Origin: Candidatus Methylomirabilis oxygeniifera | GTDB lineage: Bacteria > Methylomirabilota > Methylomirabilia > Methylomirabilales > Methylomirabilaceae | Direction: 5' to 3' | DNA length: 32,000 nucleotides | NCBI GenBank assembly: GCA_000091165.1 | Contig: FP565575.1 | Coordinates: forward strand, 210,001 to 242,000 | In this document: one piece after another, positions 6,820 to 28,204 of the stretch | Position numbering within the stretch: the first letter of the stretch is position 1 | Layout of the letters: each line of letters opens with the position of its first letter | Program-made: the position numbers and the translations under genes | The notes under the pieces: model-generated | What the model saw: only the letters and a program-made list of their open reading frames with translations | What the model was told of the DNA's origin: nothing | The model's database searches: none

Positions 6820-7262
6820 GATCGCTCCTCAGTAGGGCTGGCAACCTATGACTATGTATACCACAAGTGCCATGCGGAGGCGATGTGATTTCTGGAGGGC
6901 GGACGCGGGGTCGCGTGGCACGCCGGCATGGAGCAGGGGTGGCTGCCGACCGCTGTGAGGGCGACGTTGCGTTTATCGCGGGTCCGCGTCCGGTTGACGA
7001 GGTGATACTGCCGGTCCACTCCGACATACAGCCGCGGGATGGACAGGCTTTCGAGAGGGAGCCGCCCCCGGTGTATCCACACCCCAAGCTACCGCCTTGG
7101 GTTCATTCCCTGCAGTTCGTCATGCCGGATCGTTACCCCGGCGCACGCCGGGGTCCAGTGTCAGGATCAATGGAAGCTCGAATTGATCGAGAAGACGAAT
7201 CCACAGTGGCGGGACCTATATGCGGAACTCTTGTAAAGCTCTGGCTATTCCCCTACGTCGTG

Positions 7263-7862: not shown

Positions 7863-7917
7863 GAATACCCCTCCCTTAAAGCCTTCAGTCTATCTACCTT
7901 GTAGTTACTAATCTGTT

Positions 7918-7947
7918 CAGTATACCCCCGCCAGGGAGCCGCGGTCA
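7918..7947 (-). promoter_or_regulatory. Sigma70-like promoter of the lipoprotein gene
   Basis: On the minus strand: TTGACC (7947-7942), 18-nt spacer, TATACT (7923-7918). Confidence 0.4.
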
Positions 7948-8020
7948 ATCCAAAGATAGGCAGATAGGTAATCAATCAGTGAGAGGGGGGAAAATCATTG
8001 AATCCACTGGGGGTTCATTA

Positions 8021-8094
8021 TAAAATCCCCCTTTTTCAAAGGGGGAAACGGTTAGTCCCCCTCTTTGGAAAAGAGGGGTTAGGGGAGATTTTCC
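8021..8094. repeat. Two adjacent G/C hairpin repeats (subfamily A at 8027-8045, subfamily B at 8057-8078)
   Basis: ccccctttttcaaaggggg and cccctctttggaaaagagggg, followed by ttaggggagattttcc. The subfamily B copy matches 2961-2997 and 3147-3184. Confidence 0.85.
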
Positions 8095-8129
8095 ACCCGT
8101 AACTGAATGGTTACGTAGATAGGTCACAC

Positions 8130-8158
8130 TTGACTTCCCTCTTACGCTTTCGTAGTAT
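8130..8158 (+). promoter_or_regulatory. Possible promoter of the Skp-like / paralog B / methyltransferase operon
   Basis: TTGACT (8130-8135), 17-nt spacer, TAGTAT (8153-8158). Confidence 0.3.
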
Positions 8159-8192
8159 GTTGAGGTCAGTCGTCAGCGCCGGGTACGGGGAC

Positions 8193-8236
8193 ATACCCCC
8201 TTTAATCCCCCTTTGCCAAAGGGGGAGGGGGGGGGA
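8193..8236. repeat. G/C hairpin repeat (subfamily A) followed by a G9 tract
   Basis: ccccctttgccaaaggggg at 8207-8225. Homopolymer G9 at 8227-8235. Confidence 0.8.
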
Positions 8237-8366
8237 GATGGGGAATGACCACATACACCGGATAGACGAAATGTCGAACGGCTTGGGCGAGGGGGTTGGA
8301 ATGTATCTGATCGGTTGCGGTACAACGCGAAAGCGGGGAGCAGGATCCCCGAGTATCCGGGGGAGG

Positions 8367-8936
8367 ATGGCTGCCGTTTTGCTGTTCAGCCTGCTTGTCG
8401 GCCTGCCGGCGATATTGGCGTTCGGGGAGGGGAAGTCCGGGATTGTGGACAGTGCGGAACTGATCAAGTTCTATGAACAACTGATGGCCAGTCCGGCCTT
8501 TGATCCGAAGACGCCGTTAGGGCCGGGGCGGGAGGAACGGGGGCGGGCGGAGGAAGAGCTTGATGCCGCCAAGCGCGCCTATGCCAAAGCCAGGGTGAAA
8601 GGCAATCCGGAGGCCCTGGCCGCCGCTCGAGACGTACTGCGCCAGAAGACAGACGCCTTACAGGTTCTGTACGGCAAGACCACTCAGGACCTCAGAGATG
8701 TTGCGAAGTACCGTTCGCCTGATATTCTGGTCGAATCGCTGCGCAGCCGTATTCAGGAGTATGGCCAGGCGCAAGGGTTTGACATCATTACGAATCAACA
8801 GACCGGCAAACCGATGTTCCTCCGAGAGGGCTTTTCCGGCGCCCCGGACAATCCGGTTGACGTCACGGGGGAAATGATCGAATGGATCAGACAGCAGGAG
8901 GCGGCGAGTCAATCCGGCCGTACAACCAGTCCCTGA
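8367..8936 (+). CDS. OmpH/Skp-like periplasmic chaperone (start 8367, or 8301)
   Basis: Signal peptide MAAVLLFSLLVGLPAILAFG. KSGIVDSAELIKFY resembles the Skp N-terminal K-I-G-V-V-D motif. Long helical, charged middle section. C-terminal GFDIITNQ...VDVTGEMIEWI resembles the Skp tail. Confidence 0.5.
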   Translation: MAAVLLFSLLVGLPAILAFGEGKSGIVDSAELIKFYEQLMASPAFDPKTPLGPGREERGRAEEELDAAKRAYAKARVKGNPEALAAARDVLRQKTDALQVLYGKTTQDLRDVAKYRSPDILVESLRSRIQEYGQAQGFDIITNQQTGKPMFLREGFSGAPDNPVDVTGEMIEWIRQQEAASQSGRTTSP

Positions 8937-9042
8937 TCCTCTCGCGGATGCCGGTCCACCGGCGTTCGTCCTCACCTTGCGTATGATGCAGCACTGTCGG
9001 CTCCCATCACATGTCCGGCCTTACGGCGCGCCTGTCTTCCGG

Positions 9043-9963
9043 ATGGGCAGGCGCAGACGGGCGGCATGGGCCGCGCCTCTTCTCATGATCGTGTGGGTGT
9101 TGTCCGTCTGCCTTCATCAGCCTGCCCAGGCTCTGGCCGCGACGAACAGCGAGCTGATCCCTGGATCGAGGATTGTCTTCCCATACTACGATCTCCGCGA
9201 AGGCATCTCGACTTTTCTGAGCTTGACGAATGTCGGTCTCGGTTCGGCGACCCTTCACCTGGAATTCTACGATGCGAGCTGTCTGCGGCGAGACAGCAGC
9301 CTGGACCTCTCGGCAGGCGATGCCGACCTGCTGGATATCGGTGCCATCCTGCAGCCTCAGGCAGACGGGCTGTTCCGGCAAGGGTTTGTGGACGTGGTGA
9401 CCTTTGCGGGGGATGCCCTGCTCGGAACGGCGATCATCGTGAATGGGCCGGAGGATTGGGGGATCGTCTATCATGGCGCCTCAGCCAGGCGGTTGTCGGG
9501 TGGTCCTCTCCCATTTGAGCCCTACCCATCACGACTGTTTCTGCCGGCCTTCCTTACTCAGGGGAGCGTGGGTGACGGGAGGCTGAGCGATGGGCTGCTG
9601 GTAGTGGCCGCGCCTCACCCGACCCAGCCAGGCGGTGAACTGCCCGATCTGTCATTACAGTCGACAATCCGAGTCTTTCTCGATCAGGAACCGGCGTTTC
9701 AGTTGACGACGATTGGTGAGAAAGCGGAGGAGGGGCTGCCGACGGCGACCTCGACCGGCCATCAGCTTCTTCTTCCCATCGGTCAGGCCGCGGGGACATT
9801 TCCTACGCCGAGGTTCGGCTGGCTCTCGGTGACCAATCAGGCTGTCGATGAGGTCGGCACACCGATCGGCATGGTGGGTCTGTACATCCAGACGATTGCC
9901 GGAGATGGGTCCGGCATGGGCATGGCGATCCGCCTCTGGGCCGATCCGGCATCCGGGCCGTAG
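9043..9963 (+). CDS. Secreted protein, unrecognised family, paralog B (306 aa)
   Basis: Signal peptide MGRRRRAAWAAPLLMIVWVLSVCLHQPAQALA/ATN. Blocks colinear with paralog A: SELIPGSRIVFPYYD / TELVPASRLVAPFLD; LHLEFYDASC / VHLEHYGQSC; LLGTAII in both; PSRLFLPAF / PHRVFVPIY; LLVVAAP / FLVVAGP; GWLSVTN / GWIDIIN; RLWAD / RLWGD. Confidence 0.75.
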   Translation: MGRRRRAAWAAPLLMIVWVLSVCLHQPAQALAATNSELIPGSRIVFPYYDLREGISTFLSLTNVGLGSATLHLEFYDASCLRRDSSLDLSAGDADLLDIGAILQPQADGLFRQGFVDVVTFAGDALLGTAIIVNGPEDWGIVYHGASARRLSGGPLPFEPYPSRLFLPAFLTQGSVGDGRLSDGLLVVAAPHPTQPGGELPDLSLQSTIRVFLDQEPAFQLTTIGEKAEEGLPTATSTGHQLLLPIGQAAGTFPTPRFGWLSVTNQAVDEVGTPIGMVGLYIQTIAGDGSGMGMAIRLWADPASGP

Positions 9964-9986
9964 CGCCTGAGGAGATCCGATACGCC

Positions 9987-11150
9987 ATGGGCAGCCTGAC
10001 CGTCGTGATTCGTCAGGGAGCGGATGGCCGCTTCGCGCAGGTCTGTCGGGACAGCCTGGTCAACTGTACCCCGGAGCTGGAACAGATCATCGAGATGCCG
10101 GACGACACCCGCCCTGGTGGTGTCTGGACCCGGATCAGCACCCCGTTTGTGGCATTTATTGACGAGACCGTTGCGGTGTGTCCGGGGTGGGCCGGACGTA
10201 TGATAGCGAGCCTGATCCGATCGGGGGCGGCGGCGATCGGCCCCCTGACCAATGGCGCCGACGGGGCGCAACACCAGGCAGGCGACTATCAGGACATCTC
10301 CGGGTTTTTGGACTTCGCCGACCGGATCGCTCAAGACCGGGCCGGCCGGACCCAGTCGGTTGAGGCTCTGGATCCCTGTTGTGTTCTCTATTCCCGCGAC
10401 AGGCTTACCGGGATCGGGTTAGATGCTGCGCCCAATGACCTGCCGGCATTTGTGCATGATGCCGGCCTCTGCCTGGCGGTTGCCTTGGACACCTACGTTC
10501 ACTCCTTCGCCTCCTACTATGCCCAGGCCCGTCCGGAGGTGGTTGCCATGATTCCGGCGACTGCGTCCCGCATTCTGGATGTCGGCTGCGGAACAGGGAC
10601 GCTTGGAGGCCGACTGAAGACGGAGCGCCGGATTGAGGTTATCGGTGTCGAGATGGATCCGACAGCGGCGGAGGCGGCCGGCCGTGTGCTGGATCGAGTG
10701 CATCGTGCCGACGTAGAGACGCTGGTATTGCCGTATCCTGCAGGGAGCTTCGACGCGATCATCATGGCGGACATCCTGGAGCACCTGCGTGATCCATGGG
10801 GCCTGCTTGCGAGACTTTCGCCGCTTCTGTCATCCGAGGGCCGCCTGATTGCCAGTCTGCCCAATGTCCGGCACTGGTCGGTGGTGCGGGGGCTCCTGGA
10901 GGGCGAGTGGACCTATCTGCCTGCCGGTATTCTGGATCGCACACATCTACGCTTCTTCACCAGGAGGAGCGGCCAGGCCCTTATCGAGTCGGCCGGGTTA
11001 TGTGTGATCGGGACTGAACCGATCCGGTCGGCCGGGCCGCCGGATCTTGCGGCATTGGTCGAGGCCTGCCGGGGCCTTTTACTCGACGTCTCCACCCTCG
11101 TCGATGAGGCGAGCGTCGCACAGTATCTCTACCTGGCGGCGCCAAGATAG
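9987..11150 (+). CDS. Fusion of a degenerate GT2-like N-terminal domain and a class I SAM-dependent methyltransferase
   Basis: The N-terminus has GT2-like topology (LTVVIRQG...FVAFIDETV) without a clean DxD motif. The C-terminal half has ILDVGCGTGTLG (motif I), DAIIMADILEHLRDP and THLRFFT, typical of Methyltransf_11/23-type enzymes. Confidence 0.7.
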   Translation: MGSLTVVIRQGADGRFAQVCRDSLVNCTPELEQIIEMPDDTRPGGVWTRISTPFVAFIDETVAVCPGWAGRMIASLIRSGAAAIGPLTNGADGAQHQAGDYQDISGFLDFADRIAQDRAGRTQSVEALDPCCVLYSRDRLTGIGLDAAPNDLPAFVHDAGLCLAVALDTYVHSFASYYAQARPEVVAMIPATASRILDVGCGTGTLGGRLKTERRIEVIGVEMDPTAAEAAGRVLDRVHRADVETLVLPYPAGSFDAIIMADILEHLRDPWGLLARLSPLLSSEGRLIASLPNVRHWSVVRGLLEGEWTYLPAGILDRTHLRFFTRRSGQALIESAGLCVIGTEPIRSAGPPDLAALVEACRGLLLDVSTLVDEASVAQYLYLAAPR

Positions 11151-11171
11151 TGAGTCTTGCCTAAGCGATGG

Positions 11172-11514
11172 GGTTCTTCCGGACTGAGCGCGGGTAGAGG
11201 CCGAGTCTTCAGCGCTGGACACGGGGACACCCCCCTTGAAAAAGGGGGCGAGGGTTTTATCTTGATGGAGGACAACATTGTACTTCGGAGGGTCGTGAGA
11301 AGGACCAAGGAGAAACCCCCTTCGATCCCCCTTTGCCAAAGGGGGAGAAAAGGTAGATGTACAAGCGTGGTACCCCCCTTTGGAAAAGGGGGGCAGAGGG
11401 GGGTTTCTTTTTGCCAAAGGGGGAGACAAGGTCAGGGGAGGTGACTTCCGATTCCTCCCTGCCTGTGCGTATCTGTGCGCAGACGGGTTTACCCACGCTT
11501 ATTCCGGAAGAACC
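11172..11514 (+). mobile_element. MITE-like non-autonomous element, copy 2 (343 bp), inverted relative to copy 1
   Basis: TIRs ggttcttccggactgagcgcggg (11172-11194) and cccacgcttattccggaagaacc (11492-11514) match at 20/23. Flanks agcgatgg and agtcatgg match at 6/8. The interior is colinear with the reverse complement of 5699-5987, including a perfect 36-mer (11199-11234 = revcomp of 5925-5960), and has an extra 51 nt. Confidence 0.7.
11261..11311 (+). pseudogene. 51-nt relic of a DUF559 gene inside MITE copy 2
   Basis: cttgatggaggacaacattgtacttcggagggtcgtgagaaggaccaagga aligns with 44-94 of the DUF559 CDS (about 44/51 identical). It is followed directly by module Y, which in the intact copy lies about 115 nt further on. 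Confidence 0.65.
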
Positions 11515-11552
11515 AGTCATGGAAAAGGAACTGCACAACCGTCCGTTCGGCC

Positions 11553-11595
11553 TGAGCTTGTCGAAGGCTGCTCCGCGCATGGTTCGACAGGCTCA
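11553..11595. repeat. Hairpin repeat of the LSLSKG/FDKLR type
   Basis: tgagcttgtcgaa (11553-11565) pairs with ttcgacaggctca (11583-11595) with one mismatch. Pseudo-peptides of this kind (SLSK... / FDKLRPNG) are common repeat translations in environmental genomes. Confidence 0.6.
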
Positions 11596-11634
11596 CCATG
11601 AGCAGAGCAAGGACATTTACGTCGTGCATTACTT

Positions 11635-12801
11635 ATGCAAACCTCAAGAGTGATCGACGTCGATCCGGTTGATCTGTCCGTCCTGATCGTCAACTATAAT
11701 GTGGGCCGATTCGTCCTGGATGCGATAGGTTCGGTCGCGGCACAGCGGTTTGTTGGGCCTGAAGGGCGTCCCGGTCGTCTTGAGATGCTGGTCATCGATA
11801 ATGCGTCACATCCCGCCGATGCAGCCATACTGGATCGCCTGCCCGCCTCCGTCACCGTCATAAAGAACTCAACGAATCTTGGATTCGCGGCTGCCAACAA
11901 TCAGGGGATTGTACGGGCGCAGGGCCGATACCTCTGTTTCTTGAATCCCGATACGAGGCTTCGAGAGGGATCGCTCCAGGCGATGCTTCAGTATCTGTAT
12001 GAGCACCCCGGGGTTGGAATGGTAGGGCCCATGATCTGGGCCGACGATGAGGGGGTGCTGCGTCTGCCGCCCGGTGATCCGCCCTCTCTGTTGTTTCTGT
12101 TGAGCCGGGCTATGGGCGGGGTCTCTCCGAGGTTCAGTCTGTGGCGGCAAAGGCGGTGGCTCCGATCTGCTGTTCGGTTCTGGCGGGCTGAGGCTCCGAT
12201 GGACACTACCATGCTCTCCGGCGCCTGCCTGATGGCATCGCGGCATGTTATCGAGCATGTCGGCCGGTTCGATTCCGGCTTCTTCCTGTACTATGAGGAC
12301 TCCGATCTGTGTCGTCGCATTCGTGGGCAAGGTTATCGCCTGGTGGTCGTGCCTGCCGCTCAGGTCGTCCATTATTATAATCAGAGCGCAAAGACGGACC
12401 CGGCAGGAGCCTGGTGTCACGCCATGGCCTCCGAGCTTCGCTTTGTCAGGATCCATTACGGTCGCACCGGTGCCCTGATATACCGGATCGCTCAAGACAT
12501 AGGTAGGCGTTCAGGACGGGGTCGACAGCCGGTGAACAGGCCGGACGTGATAGATCTCGGCGCGCTGGAGCGGCCACCCCGATTGAGCGTCCCAGGCGCT
12601 GTCGTGCCCGAGAGGGAGCTGCTATGGCAGGTTGGTCCGGATTCCGGATTTGCGCCCTCGGCCGGAGCCCTGCGTGTCGGGAACGGATTCGACTTTAACC
12701 GGATTGTGTGGGAACGTCTGATGCCCGGACGTTATTTCGCCAGGGCCGTCGATCCAAAGACCCTTCGGCCGATGGCATACTGGTCGTGGGTAAAGCGGTA
12801 G
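11635..12801 (+). CDS. Family 2 glycosyltransferase (rhamnosyltransferase-like)
   Basis: LSVLIVNYN...LVIDNAS...NLGFAAANNQG...FLNPDT...GACLMASRHV...FFLYYEDSDLCRR is the classic GT2 (WbbL-like) motif order. Confidence 0.85.
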   Translation: MQTSRVIDVDPVDLSVLIVNYNVGRFVLDAIGSVAAQRFVGPEGRPGRLEMLVIDNASHPADAAILDRLPASVTVIKNSTNLGFAAANNQGIVRAQGRYLCFLNPDTRLREGSLQAMLQYLYEHPGVGMVGPMIWADDEGVLRLPPGDPPSLLFLLSRAMGGVSPRFSLWRQRRWLRSAVRFWRAEAPMDTTMLSGACLMASRHVIEHVGRFDSGFFLYYEDSDLCRRIRGQGYRLVVVPAAQVVHYYNQSAKTDPAGAWCHAMASELRFVRIHYGRTGALIYRIAQDIGRRSGRGRQPVNRPDVIDLGALERPPRLSVPGAVVPERELLWQVGPDSGFAPSAGALRVGNGFDFNRIVWERLMPGRYFARAVDPKTLRPMAYWSWVKR

Positions 12802-14326
12802 ACCGACAGACGGCTGCGATCTGATCCCACGTCAGCGGAGCAATGCGCTGCTCCCTATGGCGCCATTCGAGAATGACGGTCTTGTCGCTGTCCTGGAGCG
12901 CACCGGCGTGGAGGAGGGGACACGGGTCCCCAGGGTGATGCAGGAGACGGACCTCCTGTGGAATGCGCGTAAACGGGGCTGCCGCAGCGATCGGCAGCGC
13001 CCAACTCCCCTGCCCGAAGAGCTGTGCGCCGAAGTGGAGGTCAGGATTACCGATCATGAGGACGGCGCGCACGTCGGATCTGTTCGCGGCTTGTTCGATC
13101 ACCGCAAGGATTGTCCGGTTGATCCGACCTGCCTGGATCCATGGGAGGCTGTTGACGGATAACAGCATAACGGATGACAGCACGACGGCCGATGTCCATA
13201 TACGACGGATGCGTGTTCGACTCTGATTGAGAAGGACACCGAGAAGGAGGCAGAACCCTGCCGATGATAGATAATGGAGTCTGGCAAAATCATCCGGCGC
13301 GCCCCTTGCCGACAGGAGGCTGAGTACCGGGAGCGCCAGGATGATCATCAGGCCGAGGCAATAGAGCGCCTGTCGACGCATGCTCCCCGTGACGGCAACG
13401 ACCGCGACCACAGCGGCCGAGAGCCACTGGAAGATGCCGATAGCTCGCCTTGCCATGATACCGATCACCGGATCACCCGCAGACGTGAGCAGCGATCCCC
13501 CCGGCAACAGTTGATAGAGAAACAGATGAACGAGCCCGAGCGGCATCAGGGAGGGGTCGGAGGGGTTGGTGTCCATGGGGCCATACTGACCGATGAGATG
13601 CCCGGTGAGTACCTTGCGAAGGATGAAGTAGGCCCCCAGCACGATATAATACGGCAGCAGCGACATGGCCGTGGGAGGGGCGGATCGGTCACGGTTCGGA
13701 TACCGAACCATCACCCAATGAAAGGTCAGGACAATAGGAACGATGACGGCAGTTTCCTTTGAAGCAAGAGCAAGGACGAAGGCAAGCAACGATCCCGGAT
13801 AGAGCAACGGCTGTTTGAGGCCGGAAAAGGCAAGATACAGCAGGATCGCCAGGAGCGCAAAGAAGGCCATGATCAGTTCTGTACGGCCGACGAGCCAGTA
13901 GACGGCTTCAGGGTGCAGGGGGTGGAGCGCAAACAAGAGGCCTGCCGTCAATCCGATAGCCGGTGAGGCAATGGGCCGCAGGGCAGCGATACCGTACACA
14001 AGGAGACCGTTGAAGGCGTTCAAAAGCATGTTGGTCAGGTGCGGACCCACCGGGTTGACTCCCCAAAGGCTTATATCGATCCCGCCGGAGAGCGTTACCA
14101 TCGGACGGTAATAGCTGTAGCTCAGGTCGCCGCGATAGACCGTGTAGAAGTCGGACAGTACGTTCTGCCAGTCGACTGAATTCCTGTCGCCGCTGAGGAT
14201 GGTGACGACGTTGAAGTCGTCGGATAGGAAGTAGCCGTACAGGGATGGGGCGTACACGAGAAGACTCACCGCAAGTATCAGCGACAGATCGCAGGCGATT
14301 CTGGAAGGCAGTGGGGATGGATGCAT
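12695..14326 (-). CDS. GT-C superfamily polytopic membrane glycosyltransferase (PMT/TMTC/ArnT-like)
   Basis: AAGGAGG lies 6 nt before ATG 14326. Many hydrophobic helices. The first extracytoplasmic loop carries YFLSDDFNVV, the acidic DD/DE motif characteristic of GT-C enzymes. Soluble C-terminal domain of about 150 aa. Confidence 0.55.
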   Translation of the reverse strand: MHPSPLPSRIACDLSLILAVSLLVYAPSLYGYFLSDDFNVVTILSGDRNSVDWQNVLSDFYTVYRGDLSYSYYRPMVTLSGGIDISLWGVNPVGPHLTNMLLNAFNGLLVYGIAALRPIASPAIGLTAGLLFALHPLHPEAVYWLVGRTELIMAFFALLAILLYLAFSGLKQPLLYPGSLLAFVLALASKETAVIVPIVLTFHWVMVRYPNRDRSAPPTAMSLLPYYIVLGAYFILRKVLTGHLIGQYGPMDTNPSDPSLMPLGLVHLFLYQLLPGGSLLTSAGDPVIGIMARRAIGIFQWLSAAVVAVVAVTGSMRRQALYCLGLMIILALPVLSLLSARGAPDDFARLHYLSSAGFCLLLGVLLNQSRTRIRRIWTSAVVLSSVMLLSVNSLPWIQAGRINRTILAVIEQAANRSDVRAVLMIGNPDLHFGAQLFGQGSWALPIAAAAPFTRIPQEVRLLHHPGDPCPLLHAGALQDSDKTVILEWRHREQRIAPLTWDQIAAVCRSTALPTTSMPSAEGSLDRRPWRNNVRASDVPTQSG

Positions 14327-14437
14327 GTCGGGCCTCCTTGTGCCCCACAGTGAAGGCGATACCATCATAACCGCCATATCAGTATCACGACCCAGGAGAT
14401 GTTGCAATCGTTCTTCAGTCGGTATAGATGCCTTACC

Positions 14438-14467
14438 TTGACGGTTCAAGTCCAAAGCCATTATACT
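14438..14467 (+). promoter_or_regulatory. Sigma70-like promoter of wzm-wzt and downstream genes
   Basis: TTGACG (14438-14443), 18-nt spacer, TATACT (14462-14467). GAGAGGAG lies upstream of ATG 14503. Confidence 0.45.
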
Positions 14468-14502: not shown

Positions 14503-15294
14503 ATGAAGGCGATACGAGCGATCTATCGATACAGAGAGGTGACATTCAGCTTTGTGAAGCGGGATCTGGCGGCTCGCTACAAGGGTTCGACCTTCGGAAT
14601 GCTCTGGTCGATCGTCAATCCTCTCATTATGCTGATCCTTTATACCTTTGTCTTCTCCACGATCCTGAAGGTTCGGGTGGGTGTTCAGGAGGGTACCGGC
14701 AGTTTTGCCGTCTACCTGTTCTGCGGTCTGCTGCCATGGAACGCCTTTGCCGAGCCCCTTGGACGGTCCACGGGGATCGTGTTTGAGCATACCAATCTTA
14801 TCAAGCGAATGGTATTTCCGGTCGAGATCCTTCCTTTATATATTGTCATTTCAAGTATAATCAATCAACTGATAGGTCTGGCCATCCTTTTCCTCGTCCT
14901 GCTTGCGAACGGACATCGGTTCAGTATGCTGATTGCATTCCTGCCGGCGCTTCTCCTTCTCCAGATTACTTTTACCGTTGGATTAGCCTGGATTATAGCC
15001 GGAGCCACTGTCTTTTTGCGCGATATTGCTCAGGTGATCGGAATGATCACGACCCTGTGGCTTTTCCTGACCCCGATATTTTACACGGCTAATCTTGTTC
15101 CTGAGGGATGGCGGCCTTTTCTAGGGTTGAACCCGATGTATGCCGTTGTTGAGTCGTACAGGTCTATTATCCTGAAAGGGCAGTTGCCTGATCCGAGCAG
15201 CCTGATTTACCTTTTTCTCACGGCTGTCATTACCTTTGTTGTCGGCCATCGGATTTTTACTAGGATGCAACCCGCGTTCGCTGATGTGATCTGA
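14503..15294 (+). CDS. wzm: ABC-2 type polysaccharide export permease
   Basis: YRYREVTFSFVKRDLAARYKGSTFGMLWSIVNPL is the typical Wzm/TagG/KpsM N-terminus. Six hydrophobic segments. 263 aa. Confidence 0.85.
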   Translation: MKAIRAIYRYREVTFSFVKRDLAARYKGSTFGMLWSIVNPLIMLILYTFVFSTILKVRVGVQEGTGSFAVYLFCGLLPWNAFAEPLGRSTGIVFEHTNLIKRMVFPVEILPLYIVISSIINQLIGLAILFLVLLANGHRFSMLIAFLPALLLLQITFTVGLAWIIAGATVFLRDIAQVIGMITTLWLFLTPIFYTANLVPEGWRPFLGLNPMYAVVESYRSIILKGQLPDPSSLIYLFLTAVITFVVGHRIFTRMQPAFADVI

Positions 15295-16562
15295 TGTACG
15301 CGATTGAGGTCCATGACCTTTCTAAGGTCTATCGGCTCTACTCGAATCCGAAGGACCGCCTCAAGGAGTATCTCTTCCGGGGCAGGCGGACCTACCACCA
15401 GGCGTTCTGGGCCTTAAGAAATGTGAGTTTCAGGGTTGCACATGGCTCGACGTTAGGCCTTGTCGGCGACAACGGGGCCGGTAAGAGCACGCTGCTTCAA
15501 CTGGTGGCCGGCACTCTGCGGCCCACATCCGGCAGCGTGACGTTGAATGGCCGCGTCTCCACAATCCTGGAACTGGGTGCGGGGTTCAATCCGGAGTTTA
15601 CAGGTCGAGAGAATGTCTTTATGACAGGATCAATCATGGGGATACCACAGCAGGAAATGGAGCGGCGATTCCCGGAGATTGCCGCGTTTGCAGAAATTGG
15701 GGATTTTATTGAACGGCCTGTAAAGCTGTATTCCAGCGGCATGTACGTCCGCCTTGCGTTTGCTGTTGCGACCAGCGTGGACCCCGACATACTGATAGTC
15801 GATGAGGCCCTCTCTGTCGGGGATCAGTACTTTCAGAAGCGCTGCATAGATCGGATCGAAGGTTTCAGGAAGTCCGGTAAGAGCATACTGTTTTGCTCTC
15901 ACAATCTGTACCAGATCAGATTGATCTGCGACGAGGCCGTCTGGCTGAAGGATGGTGAGGTCGCCATGGCCGGAGAGGCCTCCAGGGTTATTGGAGCGTA
16001 TCAGAACTATATGCGGGAGAGGGAGATGCCAAAGGCTTCTCCCGCCACGGTTGAGGTCGGACCAAGGACCTTTCCCTGGGTCTCAGGTGTACGGCTGAGC
16101 TGTGGTGACGAGGAGGGGGATCGGGATGAGTTCGTAACAGGAGACGAACTGGTCGTGACGGTCGCGTACGAGGTGCCTGATCCGCCAAGGGTTGTTCATG
16201 TGGGTGTCGTCATTGTCAGGAACGATTCGGTGCAGGTATTCGGCACCGGCACCCACGTCTCAGGCGTCAAACTCCCACCCCGTTCGAGCAGTTCAAGGAT
16301 ACGTTTTCCGGCACTTCCGCTTCTATCCGGTCAATACGCGATTTCAGTGTTCCTTCTTGATGAGCACGGAATTCACGTCTACGATGAAAAGGAGCGCGAG
16401 TTCAAGTTCCAGGTGACTCAGAATGTGCAGGCCCTGGGTCTGAGCTTCCTGGAACACCGTTGGGACGTGGAGGTCCCGCATGAGGCGAACGGCAAGTGGG
16501 GCTCTGACGATCACGCCGGCAACAAGCAGATAAACAATGCGTTAGGCATCGTCAAAGGATAA
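15294..16562 (+). CDS. wzt: Polysaccharide ABC transporter ATP-binding protein with a C-terminal Wzt_C-like glycan-binding domain
   Basis: Walker A GDNGAGKST, signature YSSGMYVRLAFA, Walker B ILIVDEALSVGD. A C-terminal extension of about 170 aa shows a beta-sandwich pattern (FVTGDELVVTVAY...LLSGQYAISVFL). Its start overlaps the wzm stop by 1 nt (TGATG). Confidence 0.85.
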   Translation: MYAIEVHDLSKVYRLYSNPKDRLKEYLFRGRRTYHQAFWALRNVSFRVAHGSTLGLVGDNGAGKSTLLQLVAGTLRPTSGSVTLNGRVSTILELGAGFNPEFTGRENVFMTGSIMGIPQQEMERRFPEIAAFAEIGDFIERPVKLYSSGMYVRLAFAVATSVDPDILIVDEALSVGDQYFQKRCIDRIEGFRKSGKSILFCSHNLYQIRLICDEAVWLKDGEVAMAGEASRVIGAYQNYMREREMPKASPATVEVGPRTFPWVSGVRLSCGDEEGDRDEFVTGDELVVTVAYEVPDPPRVVHVGVVIVRNDSVQVFGTGTHVSGVKLPPRSSSSRIRFPALPLLSGQYAISVFLLDEHGIHVYDEKEREFKFQVTQNVQALGLSFLEHRWDVEVPHEANGKWGSDDHAGNKQINNALGIVKG

Positions 16563-18428: not shown

Positions 18429-21400
18429 ATGCGAACCCTCCAGATCGTGCACGGCTTTCCGCCGGAGTCGGTCGCCGGGACCGAGACCTATTGCGAGACC
18501 TTAAGTAGGTATCTTCTGGCGCGAGGGCATCAGTGCGAGGTGCTGACCGGTTCCGGCCGGCGCACAGCAAAGGCTATCCTGGCTGTCGAAGTACAGAACG
18601 GGCTGCGGGTGGCCCGTTATCTGAGAACCGAGGGACAGGCTCAGACCTGGAGAGACGAATACGACCCTGAAGCCGAGGCGCTTATCCGAGATCTGCTCTC
18701 GCGTGACCGGCCGGACCTCGTGCACCTCCACCATTGGCACCGGCTGACCAACAACCTGGTGACGATCTGTACGGACCTGGGCATCCCCGTGGTGGTGACG
18801 TTGCACGATGTCTGGACTACTTGCCCACGTATCCATCGGATCCACCGGGAGGGAGTGTTCTGCAAAGAGCCCCTTCTGACCGCACCGTGTCTACACTGTG
18901 TCGAGCGAACTCAATGGCAGACGGATCAGGAGGTCGTTGCTGCACTGGCATTACGTCAACAGATGGTGGAGGCGGAGCTTTCGCTGGCCTCGGCTCTCAT
19001 CGTACCGTCAGAGGCGCATCGTTCATTGCTGCGTGAGCTGCTTGAGCTTCCGGAGAACCGCTTGATTGTTCTTCCGCATGGGAGTTCCCAGACCATCATC
19101 GCGCAGGATAGGCGGAAGCAACCATCAGCGTTCCGAAATCGACCGCTCCAGATCGGGCATTGGGGTTATTTCCTGTATCATAAAGGTACGCACCTGCTCC
19201 TGGAGGCGCTGCATCGTCTGGACGATCCGTCTGCCGTTCAGGTTCATTTGATCGGAACGGCCTTGGAGTCGGCATATGGGGAACGACTTCGCGATCTTGC
19301 GCGCGGGCTTTCGGTACAATTCCATGGCGCCTATCAGCCCGCCGACCTGCGGACGTTTGACCTTGATCTCGCCGTCTTCCCTTCCATCACCAGTGAATCC
19401 TATTCGTTTACCATTGATGAAGCGTTGTGGTTAGGGCTGCCGGTCCTCGTCTCGGACCGTGGTGCCCTCTCGGAGCGGATCGGGAAGGCAGGCCTGACCT
19501 TTCGGGCTGAGGATGCGGAGGATCTGGCCAGGTGCCTCCAGAGGATCCTGGACGCGCCGGAGGCGCTGGAGGCGATGCGCCTGGACATCCGGCTCGATAC
19601 GCTCTTATCAATGGAGGCCCATGTCGCCGGGTTGGAGAAGATCTATGAGGATGCTGTTTGCTTGAACGTTCCCCGATTAAAAACGTCCACCCCTTATTTG
19701 AAGTTGCTTGCCAATGCAAGGCAACAGATCCAGGAGCGCGACGCGGCGTTATCGGCAGCTCACGCCGAGCGCGACGCGGCGTTATCGGCAGCTCACGCTG
19801 AACTCGCACGAGCCGAGCAGGCCATACAGCAAAAGGACACAGACCTACAACAGGTTCAACGGACCGTCGAGCGTCTTGATGCAGAGGCCCGCCATTATCG
19901 TGAATCGCTGGAAGCTATTGTGTCATCCACGGTGTGGAAGCTCACGGCGCCGATCCGATGGTTGCGCCACCCCATCCGCGCCTTACCCGGCAAAGATCGA
20001 TTCGCGATAGATTTCGCACACCTGAAAGTCACGCTCAGAAAGGCCTATTTCTACCACCGAAAAATAGGTCTTCGGGCGACAGTGCGCAGAATTATCGTCG
20101 AGTTGCGCTCCCTTCACACCAAAGCCAGGGGTCCTGCTCTGTGCTCGTCTGAGTTATTGAATATCCACGATATCTACCCCATGCCCGGAGATATTTCCAG
20201 CCGGATTGCCGTCCACGCCCATGCGTACTACCCTGATTTGACAAAAGAACTCGCGTCGTATCTGAAGAATATGCCCTTCGCGTTTGACCTGTTCGTTTCG
20301 GTCTCGAATGATGAGGCGCGCGATGTCTGTCGTCAGGCATTTGCAGGGCTGCCACAGGCTCGTCGAGTCATTGTGGACGTTGTGGCAAATCGCGGCCGAG
20401 ACATTGCGCCGATGGTATGCCATTTTGGCGGTCGACTGGCAACATACGACTACATCTGCCATCTGCACACGAAGAAATCGATGTATGCGCAGGGAAAAAT
20501 GGATGGTTGGCTGGAGTATCTTCTGCGCCAGTTGATGGGAAGCGAGGATCAGGTTAGGCGGATTTTTTCCATGTTTCAAAGCGATCCAAGAGCCGGGATT
20601 ATTTACCCTCAAAATTACGAGTATCTGCCCTACTGGGGCAATACCTGGCTATCCAATAAAGCGCTGGGCGCCCAAATGTGCCGGCAGATGGGAATCACAG
20701 ATGTGCCGGAAGGGTATTTCGACTACCCTGCAGGGTCAATGTTCTGGGCTCGAAGCGAGGCCATTCGCAATCTTTTCTCGGCCGATATCAGACTGACGGA
20801 CTTTCCCGAAGAGGCTGGTCAGACGGATGGCTCACTGGCGCACTGCATTGAGCGGTTGCTGGTTCTTGTGGCCAGACACGCCGGATATAAGCCGTTTATT
20901 CTTGCCGATCCCTTGTCACCAAGCTGGTCAAAGTGGAGATTCGACCGCTATATGGCCAGAACGCGTGATTATGTTAAAACAGCGTTGGAAGCAAAAGATA
21001 TCAAAGTGATCGCCTTCGATATTTTCGATACACTGCTTGTTCGTCCGGTTCTCCATCCCGAAACCGCAAAGACGATCATTGGCCACCGCAACCGGGAAAT
21101 GGCCGGGACCGATTTTGCCGGGCTACGGGCGAAGGCGGAAGCACTGGCGCGCTCGCGTGTGGGGCGAGACGTGGGGCTTGAAGACATTTATGCTGAGTTT
21201 GCGTCACTGACAGGCAAGCAGGTCGATGAGGTTGGGTATCTCCGGACCCTGGAGGAGGAAATAGAACGACACCTGGTTTCTCCTCGACCTGAGTGTATAG
21301 ATATGTTCAACCATGCGATACGTAGCGGCAAACGTGTCGTTCTTGCGAGTGACATGTTTTTGCCTCGTCCTATTATTGAGAAAATGCTCTCGGAGAACGG

Positions 21401-22811
21401 GATCGCGGGATATCATGCGCTCTATGTGTCCTCGGATATCGGTGTTCGCAAGGATACCGGAGAGTTGTACCGGTTAATGCTGGAACGGGAACGGATTGCC
21501 CCGGACGAACTCCTGATGGTGGGCGATAACGAACACTCTGATGTGCAGGTCCCGATGAATGTCGGAATTCAAGTATGCCACGTGTTGCGGCCGATCGAAG
21601 TTGCCAGGGCATTGCCGAGATTCTCCGGGATGATCGAATGGACTCGAACGGAAGGAGGTCTGGACGAACAGTTGGTATTGGGTCTGGTGATCAAACGACT
21701 GTTTCAGCCGGTCTTTTATGAGCAATTTGATCCTGCCCGTCTGATTCCCGGTGAGCCGGAGGATATTGGCTATGGCGTCGTCGGTCCAGTCGCCCTGAGT
21801 TTCTGTGTATGGTTGATGGACCGGGCAAAAGCGGACGGCATCGAAAAACTGTATTTCCTCGCCCGCGAGGGCCAGTTGCTCAAAGAGATCTACGATCGGG
21901 TCGCGATGCACCGCGAGGATGCCATCCCCTCCGAGTACCTTGTGTTATCCAGGCGCGCCGTCACGGTGCCGATGATCGAGTCGTTCGACGACATTTGCAG
22001 GATCGCCAAAGCCTCCGAGTACTTTCCGAACGACCTGAAGGCATTCTTCAGGTACCGATATGGGGTGCTGTTGGATGATCACGATGTCCATGAACTCTGT
22101 CGGAAGGGGCTCTGGCAGACTGGACGTTTGGTGGAGGTGAAAGGCGATATTCGCCACCTGAAGCCGGTGCTGGAAGCACTCATGGAGAAGATTACGGCCC
22201 GCAGCCGCGCAGAGCGTCCCAGCCTAATCGCCTATTTGAACCGTGTCGGACTCCATACGACGTCGGCGGTGGCGGTTGTCGACGTCGGCTATTCGGCGAC
22301 CATCCAGGGTATGCTGTCCGGGTTCCTGCATAAACCGATTCACGGCTTCTACATGCTCACATCCGCAGCGTCGCGGGAGGTCTGCGAACGGTACGGCGTG
22401 TTCGCGCACGGCTACTACGGGAGTCGGATCGCCGGCGGCGATCCCAACATATCCCCTCTCTGGCGAAGGAGCTTTGAGCTGGAGACCTTTTTGAGCTCCG
22501 ACGACCCCCAAGTCATCTGTTATGATCTGGGCACCGAGGGCCAACCTCATGCGGCGCACCAAAGCCTGTTGCCCGGCGAACAAGGGTCTTCGGACATACG
22601 GCGCAAGATTCGTCGTGGCGTCTCCTCGTTTGTCGACGACTTCCTTGCGCTGCAGCGCAACGTCTATCCGGACCTCAGGTTGTCGTCGCGTCTCCCCGAA
22701 ATGCTGTTCGGGGAGTTTGTCGAGCACATGTCAGGGGCGGAACGGGAGATGATATCGGGTCTCGTCCTGGATGATCACTATTGTGGACGCGGTACGGTTC
22801 CGCTTGGTTGA
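18429..22811 (+). CDS. 1460-aa multidomain glycan synthase: GT4, coiled coil, RgpF-like rhamnan synthesis domain, atypical HAD-like (COG5610-type) module
   Basis: aa 1-410 are GT4 (LQIVHGFPPE..., ESYSFTIDE E-x7-E motif). aa 430-490 are a heptad/hendecad-rich helix. aa about 590-820 are RgpF-like (HAHAYYPDL, NRGRDIAP, HTKKS, GSMFWAR, DGSLAHCIERL). aa about 860-1460 begin FDIFDTLLVRP with GDNEHSDV further on, and are paralogous to 25250-27244. Confidence 0.8.
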   Translation: MRTLQIVHGFPPESVAGTETYCETLSRYLLARGHQCEVLTGSGRRTAKAILAVEVQNGLRVARYLRTEGQAQTWRDEYDPEAEALIRDLLSRDRPDLVHLHHWHRLTNNLVTICTDLGIPVVVTLHDVWTTCPRIHRIHREGVFCKEPLLTAPCLHCVERTQWQTDQEVVAALALRQQMVEAELSLASALIVPSEAHRSLLRELLELPENRLIVLPHGSSQTIIAQDRRKQPSAFRNRPLQIGHWGYFLYHKGTHLLLEALHRLDDPSAVQVHLIGTALESAYGERLRDLARGLSVQFHGAYQPADLRTFDLDLAVFPSITSESYSFTIDEALWLGLPVLVSDRGALSERIGKAGLTFRAEDAEDLARCLQRILDAPEALEAMRLDIRLDTLLSMEAHVAGLEKIYEDAVCLNVPRLKTSTPYLKLLANARQQIQERDAALSAAHAERDAALSAAHAELARAEQAIQQKDTDLQQVQRTVERLDAEARHYRESLEAIVSSTVWKLTAPIRWLRHPIRALPGKDRFAIDFAHLKVTLRKAYFYHRKIGLRATVRRIIVELRSLHTKARGPALCSSELLNIHDIYPMPGDISSRIAVHAHAYYPDLTKELASYLKNMPFAFDLFVSVSNDEARDVCRQAFAGLPQARRVIVDVVANRGRDIAPMVCHFGGRLATYDYICHLHTKKSMYAQGKMDGWLEYLLRQLMGSEDQVRRIFSMFQSDPRAGIIYPQNYEYLPYWGNTWLSNKALGAQMCRQMGITDVPEGYFDYPAGSMFWARSEAIRNLFSADIRLTDFPEEAGQTDGSLAHCIERLLVLVARHAGYKPFILADPLSPSWSKWRFDRYMARTRDYVKTALEAKDIKVIAFDIFDTLLVRPVLHPETAKTIIGHRNREMAGTDFAGLRAKAEALARSRVGRDVGLEDIYAEFASLTGKQVDEVGYLRTLEEEIERHLVSPRPECIDMFNHAIRSGKRVVLASDMFLPRPIIEKMLSENGIAGYHALYVSSDIGVRKDTGELYRLMLERERIAPDELLMVGDNEHSDVQVPMNVGIQVCHVLRPIEVARALPRFSGMIEWTRTEGGLDEQLVLGLVIKRLFQPVFYEQFDPARLIPGEPEDIGYGVVGPVALSFCVWLMDRAKADGIEKLYFLAREGQLLKEIYDRVAMHREDAIPSEYLVLSRRAVTVPMIESFDDICRIAKASEYFPNDLKAFFRYRYGVLLDDHDVHELCRKGLWQTGRLVEVKGDIRHLKPVLEALMEKITARSRAERPSLIAYLNRVGLHTTSAVAVVDVGYSATIQGMLSGFLHKPIHGFYMLTSAASREVCERYGVFAHGYYGSRIAGGDPNISPLWRRSFELETFLSSDDPQVICYDLGTEGQPHAAHQSLLPGEQGSSDIRRKIRRGVSSFVDDFLALQRNVYPDLRLSSRLPEMLFGEFVEHMSGAEREMISGLVLDDHYCGRGTVPLG
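19734..19799 (+). repeat. Tandem 33-bp duplication in the coiled-coil segment (ERDAALSAAHA x2)
   Basis: gagcgcgacgcggcgttatcggcagctcacgcc at 19734-19766 is repeated at 19767-19799 with 32/33 identity. It is in frame. Confidence 0.95.
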
Positions 22812-25249: not shown

Positions 25250-27244
25250 ATGAATGAAAATATCCGTTCACTCGTAGAGCAGGCCGGGCATGTCTCCTTC
25301 GATGTCTTTGATACGGCGGTACTCCGGATCGTCAAAGAACCGGCCGATCTGTTCGATCTCGTTGAGGGGTGGTATAGGGCCACGGTTGGTCCTCTCACGT
25401 CTCGCTTCAGAGCGGTACGGGTCGAATCGGAAAGGTTGGCGAGAGAGCGGGCGTGGACGCGGAGCAGCCGCACCGAGATTACGCTGGACGACATCTACCA
25501 ATGTATGGAAGAGGGGTTCGGTGTGGCGCATGAGACGGCTGTGACGCTCAAGGATCTCGAGGTGGCGGCGGAGCTCAAGGGATGCACGAGGAACGACGAG
25601 ATCTATGCGATCTATCGCTATTGCCTTGATACGATGAGACCCGTTCTGTTCGTCTCAGATATGTATCTGCCATGCGAGGTAGTCCGACAGATCCTGCATC
25701 GGTGCGGCTATGAGCGGTTTCAGTATCTGTTTGTCTCGTCGGCCCTCGGGGCGACTAAGGCCTCAGGGAGCCTATACGAACACATCCTGAAAGAACTCGG
25801 CTGTCACCCTCAAGCAATCCTCCATATCGGAGATCATGACGATTCGGACGTCACCATGGCCCGGCGACACGGCCTGGCGACATACCGTTATGAGAAGTGC
25901 GGGGAAAGGGTGCGGCAGCTTGATCATCACAGACGCCATCGTCTGGAGCGGTGTGCGTCGCTCAGCGAGGGGGAGGGGTGTGTCGAGGCATCGATCTATG
26001 TGGCGACGGTCCTCCGCCGCCTGCTGGTGAACGGGTCGATCCGGCATGAGGGATCGGACGATCCGTTTTGGTACGAGTTCGGCTACATCTCTGCGGGTCC
26101 TCTCTTTTTCGGCTTTATCGGTTGGCTGCTCGCCCGTGCCGTTGAGGATCGGGTGGAGACGCTCTATTTCCTGTCGCGGGATGGACAGATCCTCAAGCGG
26201 GTGTACGATTACGTGTCGCCGTGGGTTGAGCATGCTCCTCCCTCGGAATACCTGTATGCCTCTCGAAGAGCCCTCAATGTACCCGCGATCACCGAACTCG
26301 ATGAGCGGACACTGGATTTCCTGGTCAGCGGAACCAGTATTCTGAGAGTGACCCAGTTCTTGGAGCGACTCGGACTTGACCCAAGCCTCTTCACAGGGGC
26401 TGTTCGAGAAGCCGGTTTCTCGGGCCTGGACCAGCGAGTGCGGACAGGGACCGATTATGTGAGATTGCGGACCCTCTTCAGATCGATCGCCGACGAGATC
26501 AGGCACGTTGCGGTGGGGGAGCGATCCATCCTCCTCGACTATTTCCGTCATGTAGGAATCCTTGAGAAAAAGCGAATCGGCATTGTGGATATCGGTTGGC
26601 ACGGGACCTTGCAAAACTCGATCAGCACGCTCCTCAGTCTGTCAGGGCGAAAGGCGGAAATCAGGGGATATTATCTGGGAACCTTCAGTCCGGCGAGGGC
26701 CATGTGTGAACGAGGGCAGGAGATGGCCGCGTACCTGTGTGAGTATGGTGAGCCGGAGTCTCGCCATGCGATGATCAAACTGTGCGTTGAGCTGTTCGAG
26801 TTTCTCCATCTTGCACCGCATGGGAGCGTGCTCCGGTTTGCTCGTCGTAACGGACATGTGGCGCCGGTACTGGAAGAGAACGACCTCGAAAAACCAAAGA
26901 TGGCAAAGTCCTGCGCTGTGCAGCGAGGCGCGTTGGATTTCGTCAAGGAATTTGGAGCGGTCTGGCAGCAGTTTCGCTTTCTGAACATGTCGCCTGATCT
27001 GGCGCTGCAGCCGTTGATGGAGGTTTTGCGGGATCCGACCGTGACGGAGGCCGTGAGGTTAGGTGATCTGGAGCATGCGGAAGGATTTGGGAATGTCTAT
27101 CAACAGCGATATATCGCCAAGCCTCCCGGAGCGCTGACGGCGTTGATCAATCCTCGAAGTCTAGTCGATCGATATCGGCAAGCCTTCTGGAAGACAGGGT
27201 ATATGAAGCGACTGCGGTCATTTGGTGGACTCGTTGGCGACTGA
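25250..27244 (+). CDS. Free-standing atypical HAD-like (COG5610-type) protein, 664 aa, function unknown
   Basis: SFDVFDTAVLR (D-x-x-D-T rather than D-x-D-x-T), SDMYLP, VSSALGATK, IGDHDDSDV. Colinear with aa 860-1460 of the 18429-22811 product (LYFLSRDGQILKRVYD / LYFLAREGQLLKEIYD; IVDIGWHGTLQ / VVDVGYSATIQ). Confidence 0.7.
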   Translation: MNENIRSLVEQAGHVSFDVFDTAVLRIVKEPADLFDLVEGWYRATVGPLTSRFRAVRVESERLARERAWTRSSRTEITLDDIYQCMEEGFGVAHETAVTLKDLEVAAELKGCTRNDEIYAIYRYCLDTMRPVLFVSDMYLPCEVVRQILHRCGYERFQYLFVSSALGATKASGSLYEHILKELGCHPQAILHIGDHDDSDVTMARRHGLATYRYEKCGERVRQLDHHRRHRLERCASLSEGEGCVEASIYVATVLRRLLVNGSIRHEGSDDPFWYEFGYISAGPLFFGFIGWLLARAVEDRVETLYFLSRDGQILKRVYDYVSPWVEHAPPSEYLYASRRALNVPAITELDERTLDFLVSGTSILRVTQFLERLGLDPSLFTGAVREAGFSGLDQRVRTGTDYVRLRTLFRSIADEIRHVAVGERSILLDYFRHVGILEKKRIGIVDIGWHGTLQNSISTLLSLSGRKAEIRGYYLGTFSPARAMCERGQEMAAYLCEYGEPESRHAMIKLCVELFEFLHLAPHGSVLRFARRNGHVAPVLEENDLEKPKMAKSCAVQRGALDFVKEFGAVWQQFRFLNMSPDLALQPLMEVLRDPTVTEAVRLGDLEHAEGFGNVYQQRYIAKPPGALTALINPRSLVDRYRQAFWKTGYMKRLRSFGGLVGD

Positions 27245-27337: not shown

Positions 27338-28204
27338 ATGACGACGCTCCTGATCGGTGCCAATGGACAGTTGGGAAGCGAGTTGCGGCAGGCGTTCAGC
27401 GATGGTGATCTGGTGCCGCTGACGCATGCCGAGTTCGAACTGGCTGACCGGACGCAGGTGTGGGATATGTTGCGCAAGTATAGTCCACACCTCATCCTCA
27501 ATACCGCCGCCTATCATCGTGTCGATGAGTGCGAGGACTTCCCTGAGCGCGCATTTGCCGTCAACGCGATTGCGGTGAGGAATCTCGCCATCGCCACGAA
27601 GGAGATTGGGGCGACGCTCGTTCACTTCAGCACTGACTACGTCTTTGACGGACGAATGCGCACCCCGTACCGGGAAGCGGACCAGCCTCGGCCGCTGAGC
27701 GTCTACGCGACCTCGAAGCGTGCCGGCGAGTACTTCGTCCAGGCAATCCTTGAGCGGTATTACCTTATCCGAACCTGCGGGCTATACGGCGTGGCAGGCC
27801 GCTGCAACAAGACGGGAAATTTTGTCGAAACGATGCTTCGACTGGCAGCGGCCGGGCGTAAGATCGATGTGGTGGGAGATCAGATTGTTACCCCGACAAG
27901 CGCCAAGGAATTGGCGCATAAGGTCCGACGGTTAGTAGAAACCGACGCCTACGGGCTCTATCACATTACCAACAACGGCGAATGCTCCTGGTATCAGTTT
28001 GCCGGGGCAGTGTTTGAACTGTCCGGTGTCCAGGCCCATCTACATGAAACAACCAGCGCCGCCTTCGGCGCGCGCGCCGTCAGGCCGGCCTATTCGGTCC
28101 TGGAGAACGCGAATCTTCGCTCGCTCGGTCTCGATGATCTGCGGCACTGGCGCGACGCCCTTTCAGAGTATCTGACTGAACGCGGGCGGTTGCAAGCGGT
28201 CTGA
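27338..28204 (+). CDS. rfbD: dTDP-4-dehydrorhamnose reductase
   Basis: LLIGANGQLGSEL, NTAAYHRVDECE, FSTDYVFDG, YATSKRAGE (Y-x3-K). The length and motif order match RmlD. Confidence 0.85.
   Translation: MTTLLIGANGQLGSELRQAFSDGDLVPLTHAEFELADRTQVWDMLRKYSPHLILNTAAYHRVDECEDFPERAFAVNAIAVRNLAIATKEIGATLVHFSTDYVFDGRMRTPYREADQPRPLSVYATSKRAGEYFVQAILERYYLIRTCGLYGVAGRCNKTGNFVETMLRLAAAGRKIDVVGDQIVTPTSAKELAHKVRRLVETDAYGLYHITNNGECSWYQFAGAVFELSGVQAHLHETTSAAFGARAVRPAYSVLENANLRSLGLDDLRHWRDALSEYLTERGRLQAV

Follow-up and report, generated by a model that had tools for sequence, protein, structure and literature searches.

The window examined here is a stretch of 32,000 nucleotides from the genome of Candidatus Methylomirabilis oxygeniifera (contig FP565575.1, positions 210,001 to 242,000, forward strand). 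It encodes two related modules: a free-standing protein of 664 amino acids (aa), referred to below as the free copy, and the C-terminal part of a 1460-aa protein, referred to as the fused copy (Table 1). Because both match Bcs3 of Haemophilus influenzae type b and the Thermobacillus composti enzyme of structure 7SHG in sequence and in fold, we conclude, with a probability that we put at about 85%, that both copies are dual-domain ribofuranosyltransferases (Ribf-GT; Ribf, ribofuranose) dependent on phosphoribosyl pyrophosphate (PRPP), in which a phosphoribose phosphatase (PRP) domain is followed by a glycan phosphoribosyltransferase (gPRT) domain. This identity is supported by sequence homology, by the predicted fold, by the retention of catalytic residues and by the surrounding genes; which donor is used, which anomer results, which acceptors are served and how the two copies share the work are inferred.

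Colinearity of the two copies

The initial annotation, made from the sequence of the window alone, had described an atypical module of the haloacid dehalogenase (HAD) type that is present twice, and the colinearity that it reported is borne out. Residues 15-488 of the free copy align with residues 861-1321 of the large protein at 28% identity and 44% positives (BLASTP, E 5e-48). A family profile covers residues 848-1460 of the large protein, so that the colinearity reaches approximately residue 614 of the free protein, which has ~50 additional C-terminal residues relative to the fused module. All six of the quoted sequence blocks were found in both translations: motif I (FDVFDT, residues 17-22, in the free copy and FDIFDT, 863-868, in the fused copy), the motif II block (SDMYLP, 136-141, and SDMFLP, 974-979), the VSSxxG block (VSSALG and VSSDIG), the motif IV block (GDHDDSDV, 194-201, and GDNEHSDV, 1032-1039), a further block (LYFLSRDGQILKRVYD and LYFLAREGQLLKEIYD) and a sixth block (IVDIGWHGTLQ and VVDVGYSATIQ). 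A search of the organism's own genome (one contig, 2,752,854 bases) revealed these two copies of the family only.

Sequence and fold matches

In the free copy, Pfam recognizes the HAD part alone (PF00702 and PF13242), and in the fused copy PF00702 is found at residues 858-1040, which confirms the placement of the N-terminal part in the HAD superfamily. No Pfam or NCBIfam model matches the C-terminal ~400 aa, and the public annotation is indeed still just 'predicted HAD superfamily hydrolase' or 'HAD family hydrolase'. Sequence searches against solved structures connected the free copy with Bcs3 (8A0C, 9H50; E 1.8e-29, residues 16-480 of the free copy and 385-855 of Bcs3) and with 7SHG (E 1.6e-18), and the fused copy with 7SHG (E 4.4e-22) and Bcs3 (E 8e-19). 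A family profile built from 30 aligned members (alignment A1) matched Bcs3 with E 5.3e-63 (profile positions 16-568) and 7SHG with E 7.4e-56 (positions 10-617 of 658), spans which show that both domains are matched.

The predicted structures led to the same enzymes. For the AlphaFold model of the free copy (predicted local distance difference test score, pLDDT, 90.2; predicted template modelling score 0.90), the first Foldseek match was 8A0C (E 8.5e-29, template modelling (TM) score 0.63-0.66, ~700 columns) and the second was 7SHG (E 2.5e-24), followed by plain HAD domains at E ~1e-6. The model of residues 520-1460 of the large protein (pLDDT 81.5) gave 7SHG (E 3.6e-23) and 8A0C (E 3.8e-22) as first matches. 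With either model, Foldseek found no full-length fold match (~650-700 aligned columns) other than these two, which are the only solved dual-domain PRPP-dependent ribofuranosyltransferases, and in both models the HAD domain is followed by the gPRT fold, consisting of a phosphoribosyltransferase-like alpha/beta core and helical bundles.

Thus, by the sequence and fold matches to Bcs3 and 7SHG, the C-terminal 400 aa, which had been left without an assignment, are a gPRT domain, and the N-terminal HAD part is a PRP domain. Since the C-terminal part is the transferase, the protein is primarily a glycosyltransferase. The description of the family as uncharacterised is likewise superseded by these full-length matches to solved and biochemically studied Ribf-transferases: classification by hidden Markov models (HMMs) and by structure, the check proposed in the initial annotation, arrived at a characterised family, yet one of glycan synthesis.

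Catalytic residues of the two domains

In the PRP domain, the nucleophile D386 of Bcs3 corresponds to D18 of the free copy and D864 of the fused copy, and K548 in motif III corresponds to K170 and K1008; the motif II pair is S136-D137 and S974-D975, and the motif IV aspartates are D195 and D200 in the free copy and D1033 and D1038 in the fused copy. The motif I-IV residues of the free copy, including D18, F20 and T22, are invariant in the 30 aligned family members, and every HAD motif residue of the fused copy is the same as the family consensus. Canonical HAD phosphatases have D-x-D-x-T/V in motif I, with the second Asp serving as general acid/base. As had been noted from the sequence, both copies have D-x-F-D-T instead: the second Asp, at position +2 from the nucleophile, is present in neither of them, the position being occupied by Phe (F20, F866), which is invariant in the family, with Asp at +3. 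In CrpP, the phosphatase of Bcs3, only the first Asp of DXD is conserved, with D386 as the nucleophile (PMC10299916), so the 'atypical' motif I is a family signature. A degenerate HAD domain was considered and rejected, because the unusual motif I does not vary within the family and recurs in CrpP; the PRP domain belongs to the HAD superfamily by its fold and motifs II-IV, yet represents a distinct subfamily.

In the gPRT domain, loop 1 of Bcs3 (S678-R679-D680) corresponds to S309-R310-D311 in the free copy and A1145-R1146-E1147 in the fused copy, the second S-R pair (S707-R708) to S338-R339 and S1174-R1175, the acidic partner E818 to D447 and D1285, and the proposed base E874 to E517 and, after a shift of the alignment by one residue, E1352. 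Bcs3 S884 is matched by S526 of the free copy and has no clear equivalent in the fused copy. The roles of these residues were assigned in Bcs3, where alanine replacement of D680 and E818 lowers activity (PMC10299916). The active-site residues of the free copy are invariant or nearly so across the family, and the fused copy agrees with the consensus of the stand-alone proteins in 57 of 95 highly conserved columns.

Relationship of the copies and distribution of the family

Is the pair a product of duplication within the locus, as the initial annotation assumed? Recent duplication was rejected on the 28% identity given above and on a tree of 81 modules, in which the two copies lie in separate deep clades and the RgpF-linked group falls on one side of a branch with support of 100; the copies are therefore old paralogues recruited to one locus. 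The rows of the tree were collected by similarity to each query, and it therefore displays the distance between the copies rather than the root of the family; it does not include Bcs3, 7SHG or the Klebsiella enzymes.

The relatives of the free copy are nearly all stand-alone proteins of ~660 aa. At least 555 of the scored candidates are relatives of the fused module with E up to 0.001, and in all 120 relatives that were listed an RgpF-like domain (PF05045) lies directly before the HAD-gPRT unit. RgpF and PRP-gPRT together form a conserved core of ~940 aa (19986-22811 in the window), to which GT2 or GT4 glycosyltransferase, PIG-L or methyltransferase domains are variably added at the N-terminus; the source organisms include Nitrosomonas, Rhodoferax and Methylomirabilota. 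No sequence relative of the RgpF-like domain was found among solved structures, and its partnership with a ribofuranosyltransferase is mentioned nowhere in the literature searched.

The closest named relatives of both copies are from Candidatus Methylomirabilis, and full-length orthologues in other Methylomirabilis-type genomes have 77-84% (free) and 82% (fused) identity. The enzyme was found in six of the 19 other genomes of the genus, with subtypes that differ between genomes; a search of 41 further genomes of the order found none, and both types together occur in only one of these 60 genomes. Such a patchy occurrence points to a surface-glycan locus that varies and may be exchanged horizontally, and the variation within the genus looks serotype-like. 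The family as a whole comprises 3,335 clusters at 50% identity (representative library, E up to 1e-30), and relatives are encoded in at least 577 species-level genomes of many phyla.

A neighbourhood census of 80 loci fetched from other genomes (tblastn with the window's own proteins) revealed at least two separate family genes within 10 kb in 11 cases, so that a pair in one locus is not unusual. Several of these 11 loci also carry Wzm/Wzt and RmlD; this type of search lacks the sensitivity needed for divergent Wzt_C (1 of 80), and its counts for Wzm and Wzt are probably too low. In a locus of a Thiobacillus metagenome-assembled genome (~6200-14400), three separate ribofuranosyltransferase-type genes were observed within ~8 kb.

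Family biochemistry and proposed reaction

Enzymes of the Ribf-GT type were described in 2022-2023. In these enzymes, the gPRT domain (CriT in Bcs3) takes ribofuranose-5-phosphate from PRPP and places it on the non-reducing-end sugar in beta linkage, and the PRP domain (CrpP in Bcs3) strips the 5-phosphate, enabling chain extension (PMC11127046, PMC11294581, PMC10299916). The activity has been proven by biochemistry for Klebsiella pneumoniae O4 ORF5 and O7 ORF7, stand-alone enzymes for O antigens exported by ATP-binding cassette (ABC) transporters (as recounted in PMC11231755), for Bcs3 (PMC10299916), for Salmonella STM0726, whose nucleophile-Asp mutant D14A accumulates Ribf-5-phosphate (PMC11294581), and for Campylobacter jejuni Cj1432 (PMC12096443).

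By the precedent of these systems (PMC11231755, PMC11294581, PMC12096443), the window proteins would use PRPP as the donor, transfer beta-Ribf-5-phosphate and then remove the 5-phosphate. The C-terminal gPRT domain would first bind PRPP-Mg, with the phosphates held by the S-R pairs (S309/R310 and S338/R339 in the free copy; A1145/R1146 and S1174/R1175 in the fused copy) and the ribose held by the acidic pair (D311 and D447, or E1147 and D1285). E517 or E1352 would then activate a hydroxyl of the non-reducing-end sugar of a lipid-linked glycan, and this hydroxyl would displace pyrophosphate with inversion, giving beta-linked ribofuranose-5-phosphate. Finally, the PRP domain would cleave the 5-phosphate via an aspartyl-phosphate intermediate, using the nucleophile D18/D864, K170/K1008 and the Mg ligands D195 and D200 or D1033 and D1038, after which the next glycosyltransferase could extend the chain. 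A glycan-specific role in processing phosphate, as suggested at the outset, is compatible with this scheme; a phospho-linked cap is not, the phosphate in question being carried only briefly, at position 5 of the ribose just added.

All ribofuranose steps are expected to be cytoplasmic and to precede export by Wzm/Wzt. Each copy would have acceptors of its own. Together with the RgpF-like domain next to it, the fused copy probably builds a rhamnose-ribofuranose backbone, and the free copy would form a second, different beta-Ribf linkage, as with the stand-alone Klebsiella O4/O7 enzymes.

Comparison with known systems

Both formats have precedents, the free-standing one in Klebsiella O4/O7 and T. 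composti and the fused one in Bcs3 and Cj1432; what is particular to the window locus is the presence of both formats together and the RgpF partnership of the fused copy. Klebsiella O4 ORF5 and O7 ORF7 are, like the free copy, free-standing two-domain proteins of ~650 aa encoded in an ABC-transporter-dependent locus (Kelly et al. 2022, as cited in PMC11231755), and, according to the same account, the Ribf-GT cooperates there with a separate multi-module coiled-coil polymerase, as the free copy would here. The O7 system is similar to the present one: its repeat unit is Rha3-Ribf (Rha, rhamnose), its Ribf-GT is free-standing, and its locus includes rmlD and rmlC (PMC11231755). The Klebsiella loci as described there contain one Ribf-GT, whereas the window has a pair, of which one is part of the coiled-coil protein, in a comparison made by description and not by sequence.

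Bcs3 (8A0C, 8A0M, 9H50; PMC10299916) has the same order of domains, a HAD phosphatase and then a PRPP transferase, and shares the first-Asp-only motif I, the acidic pair and the S-R phosphate binders with both copies. Among solved structures it comes closest to the free copy (TM scores 0.63-0.66) and, like the fused copy, is embedded in a multi-enzyme polymerase. However, the identity is ~20%, its partners are a TagF-like ribitol-phosphate transferase and an SH3b domain rather than the GT4, coiled-coil and RgpF parts found here, it has Glu at position 818 where the window proteins have Asp, and its R712 is not conserved. The T. composti enzyme, a stand-alone PRP-gPRT protein of ~650 aa, is covered over nearly its whole length by the profile (E 7e-56). 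It is the entry closest in structure to the fused copy, with which it has the S-R-E loop and the VDVG-x-x-x-TIQ motif in common; it differs in its ~19% identity (structural alignment) and in domain orientation, with a root-mean-square deviation of 12-14 A over the whole chain. In Cj1432 (GT4-PRP-gPRT; PMC12096443), the Ribf-GT is fused behind an ordinary glycosyltransferase that then extends the ribose, whereas the neighbour domain here is RgpF-like and the large protein also has an N-terminal GT4 and a coiled coil. STM0726, the Ribf polymerase of the Salmonella T1 antigen (PMC11294581), shows the family at work in an ABC-transporter pathway, although nothing in the window points to poly-Ribf synthesis.

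Alternative explanations

A key question is whether the divergent fused copy is itself a working transferase. Several points weigh against the assignment of both copies: the fused copy departs from the stand-alone consensus in 38 of the 95 highly conserved columns, has Ala for Ser at the position of Bcs3 S678 and Glu for Asp at that of D680, carries SSDDxQ in place of the APHGS loop (S884 region), and offers a putative base, E1352, that aligns with E874 only via the one-residue shift; the residue mapping itself comes from HMM alignments (HMMER) and not from residue-level structural superposition. These departures, together with the precedent for non-catalytic partners (PMC11294581), would suit an arrangement in which one copy alone works as a Ribf-transferase and the other, likeliest the fused one, is a non-catalytic scaffold or a phosphatase only, comparable to STM0725, which the Salmonella T1 system requires and to which no catalytic role is assigned. 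We consider this improbable, because the departures are conserved in a large clade: in alignment A2 of the RgpF-fused clade (25 sequences), R627-E628-G629, S655-R656-R657, D766 and E833 are invariant, the last being the column of E1352, and such invariance argues for selection on a working site. Moreover, loop 1 with Glu for Asp (S-R-E form) also occurs in the solved T. composti enzyme, as seen in the search alignment with 7SHG, and all HAD motifs of the fused copy are intact. Conserved within their own clade, the deviations give the impression of functional divergence rather than of decay.

The capping idea of the initial annotation survives most closely as a reading in which one copy, instead of being a polymerase module, adds to the finished chain a terminal beta-Ribf, or an undephosphorylated Ribf-5-phosphate, that is recognised by the C-terminal domain of Wzt. 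Some terminal residue is to be expected from the carbohydrate-binding Wzt_C domain, the free copy is a separate polypeptide, and the Klebsiella O4 cap, 3-deoxy-D-manno-oct-2-ulosonic acid (Kdo), is placed on a terminal Ribf (PMC11231755). Nevertheless, a capping function appears highly improbable: both PRP domains have complete catalytic motifs and should leave no phosphate behind, a gene of its own in the locus encodes an S-adenosylmethionine (SAM)-dependent methyltransferase, the usual kind of terminator, and no known system has Ribf as the recognised cap. The chance that the proteins are, as first proposed, novel HAD phosphatases or phosphotransferases with a C-terminal part of unknown function is negligible; such a view would accord with the bare public annotation and the lack of a Pfam or NCBIfam model, but it is contradicted by the full-length sequence and fold matches to characterised Ribf-transferases. 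A bolder proposal, unlikely but with a real chance of being correct, is that the RgpF-PRP-gPRT core forms a distinct subfamily, absent from the literature searched, that co-polymerises rhamnose and ribofuranose by itself and has a gPRT active-site variant of its own (A-R-E in loop 1, SSDDxQ in loop 6); the free paralogue would then have no part in the repeat unit and would supply an adaptor or chain-end Ribf that governs recognition by the carbohydrate-binding domain of Wzt.

Glycan locus context

The reading that we prefer, two working dual-domain ribofuranosyltransferases, is in keeping with their place in a glycan locus that includes genes for Wzm and Wzt. The locus further encodes a GNAT protein, a PIG-L deacetylase, four GT2 and one GT4 glycosyltransferases and a SAM methyltransferase, and it holds the start of an initiating sugar transferase gene. 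The dTDP-rhamnose pathway is split: rmlD alone lies in the glycan locus, and rmlA-like, rmlC and rmlB genes are clustered ~2.15 Mb away (~2388300-2390800 in the genome). Wzm/Wzt are best read as the export route of the glycan, with cytoplasmic, ABC-transporter-dependent assembly, and the product is best read as an ABC-exported glycan with rhamnose and two differently linked beta-ribofuranose residues.

Two other genes in the window may belong to the same pathway. The SAM methyltransferase (9987-11150) is a candidate chain-terminating enzyme for a Wzt_C-dependent export checkpoint. The 588-aa membrane protein, in which Pfam finds nothing at E 0.001, is perhaps a transferase of the GT-C type or a ligase-like protein.

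Table 1 Positions of the two copies, their domains and associated genes in the window
Feature	Position	Strand	Characteristics
Free copy, dual-domain ribofuranosyltransferase (predicted)	25250..27244	+	664 aa, open reading frame (ORF) open
PRP domain, free copy	25289..25894	+	~residues 14-215; D18-V-F-D21-T22, S136-D137, K170, G194-D195...D200
gPRT domain, free copy	25922..27229	+	~residues 225-660; S309-R310-D311, S338-R339, D447, E517, S526
Large protein bearing the fused copy	18429..22811	+	1460 aa, open ORF
RgpF-like (rhamnan synthesis F) domain directly upstream of the fused module	19986..20969	+	Pfam PF05045, E 8.4e-53
Fused dual-domain ribofuranosyltransferase module (predicted)	20970..22811	+	residues 848-1460 of the 1460-aa protein
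PRP domain, fused copy	21006..21593	+	~residues 860-1055; D864-I-F-D867-T868, S974-D975, K1008, G1032-D1033...D1038
gPRT domain, fused copy	21621..22808	+	~residues 1065-1460; A1145-R1146-E1147, S1174-R1175, D1285, E1352
Wzm (ABC-2 permease) and Wzt (ATPase with C-terminal Wzt_C)	14503..16562	+	Pfam PF01061, PF00005, PF14524
RmlD (dTDP-4-dehydrorhamnose reductase), directly downstream of the free copy	27338..28204	+	Pfam PF04321, E 5e-86
SAM methyltransferase	9987..11150	+	domain at residues 185-340, after an unassigned N-terminal ~180 aa
588-aa polytopic membrane protein	12695..14461	-	between a GT2 gene and wzm

Significance

The main value of these results is a corrected annotation of both proteins, which are ordinary members of a known family and open no new biochemical question. 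By extension, thousands of database entries named 'HAD family hydrolase' are ribofuranose-adding glycosyltransferases. For Methylomirabilis, a nitrite-dependent methane oxidiser of the phylum NC10, the prediction is a surface glycan that contains beta-ribofuranose in two linkages and probably also rhamnose.

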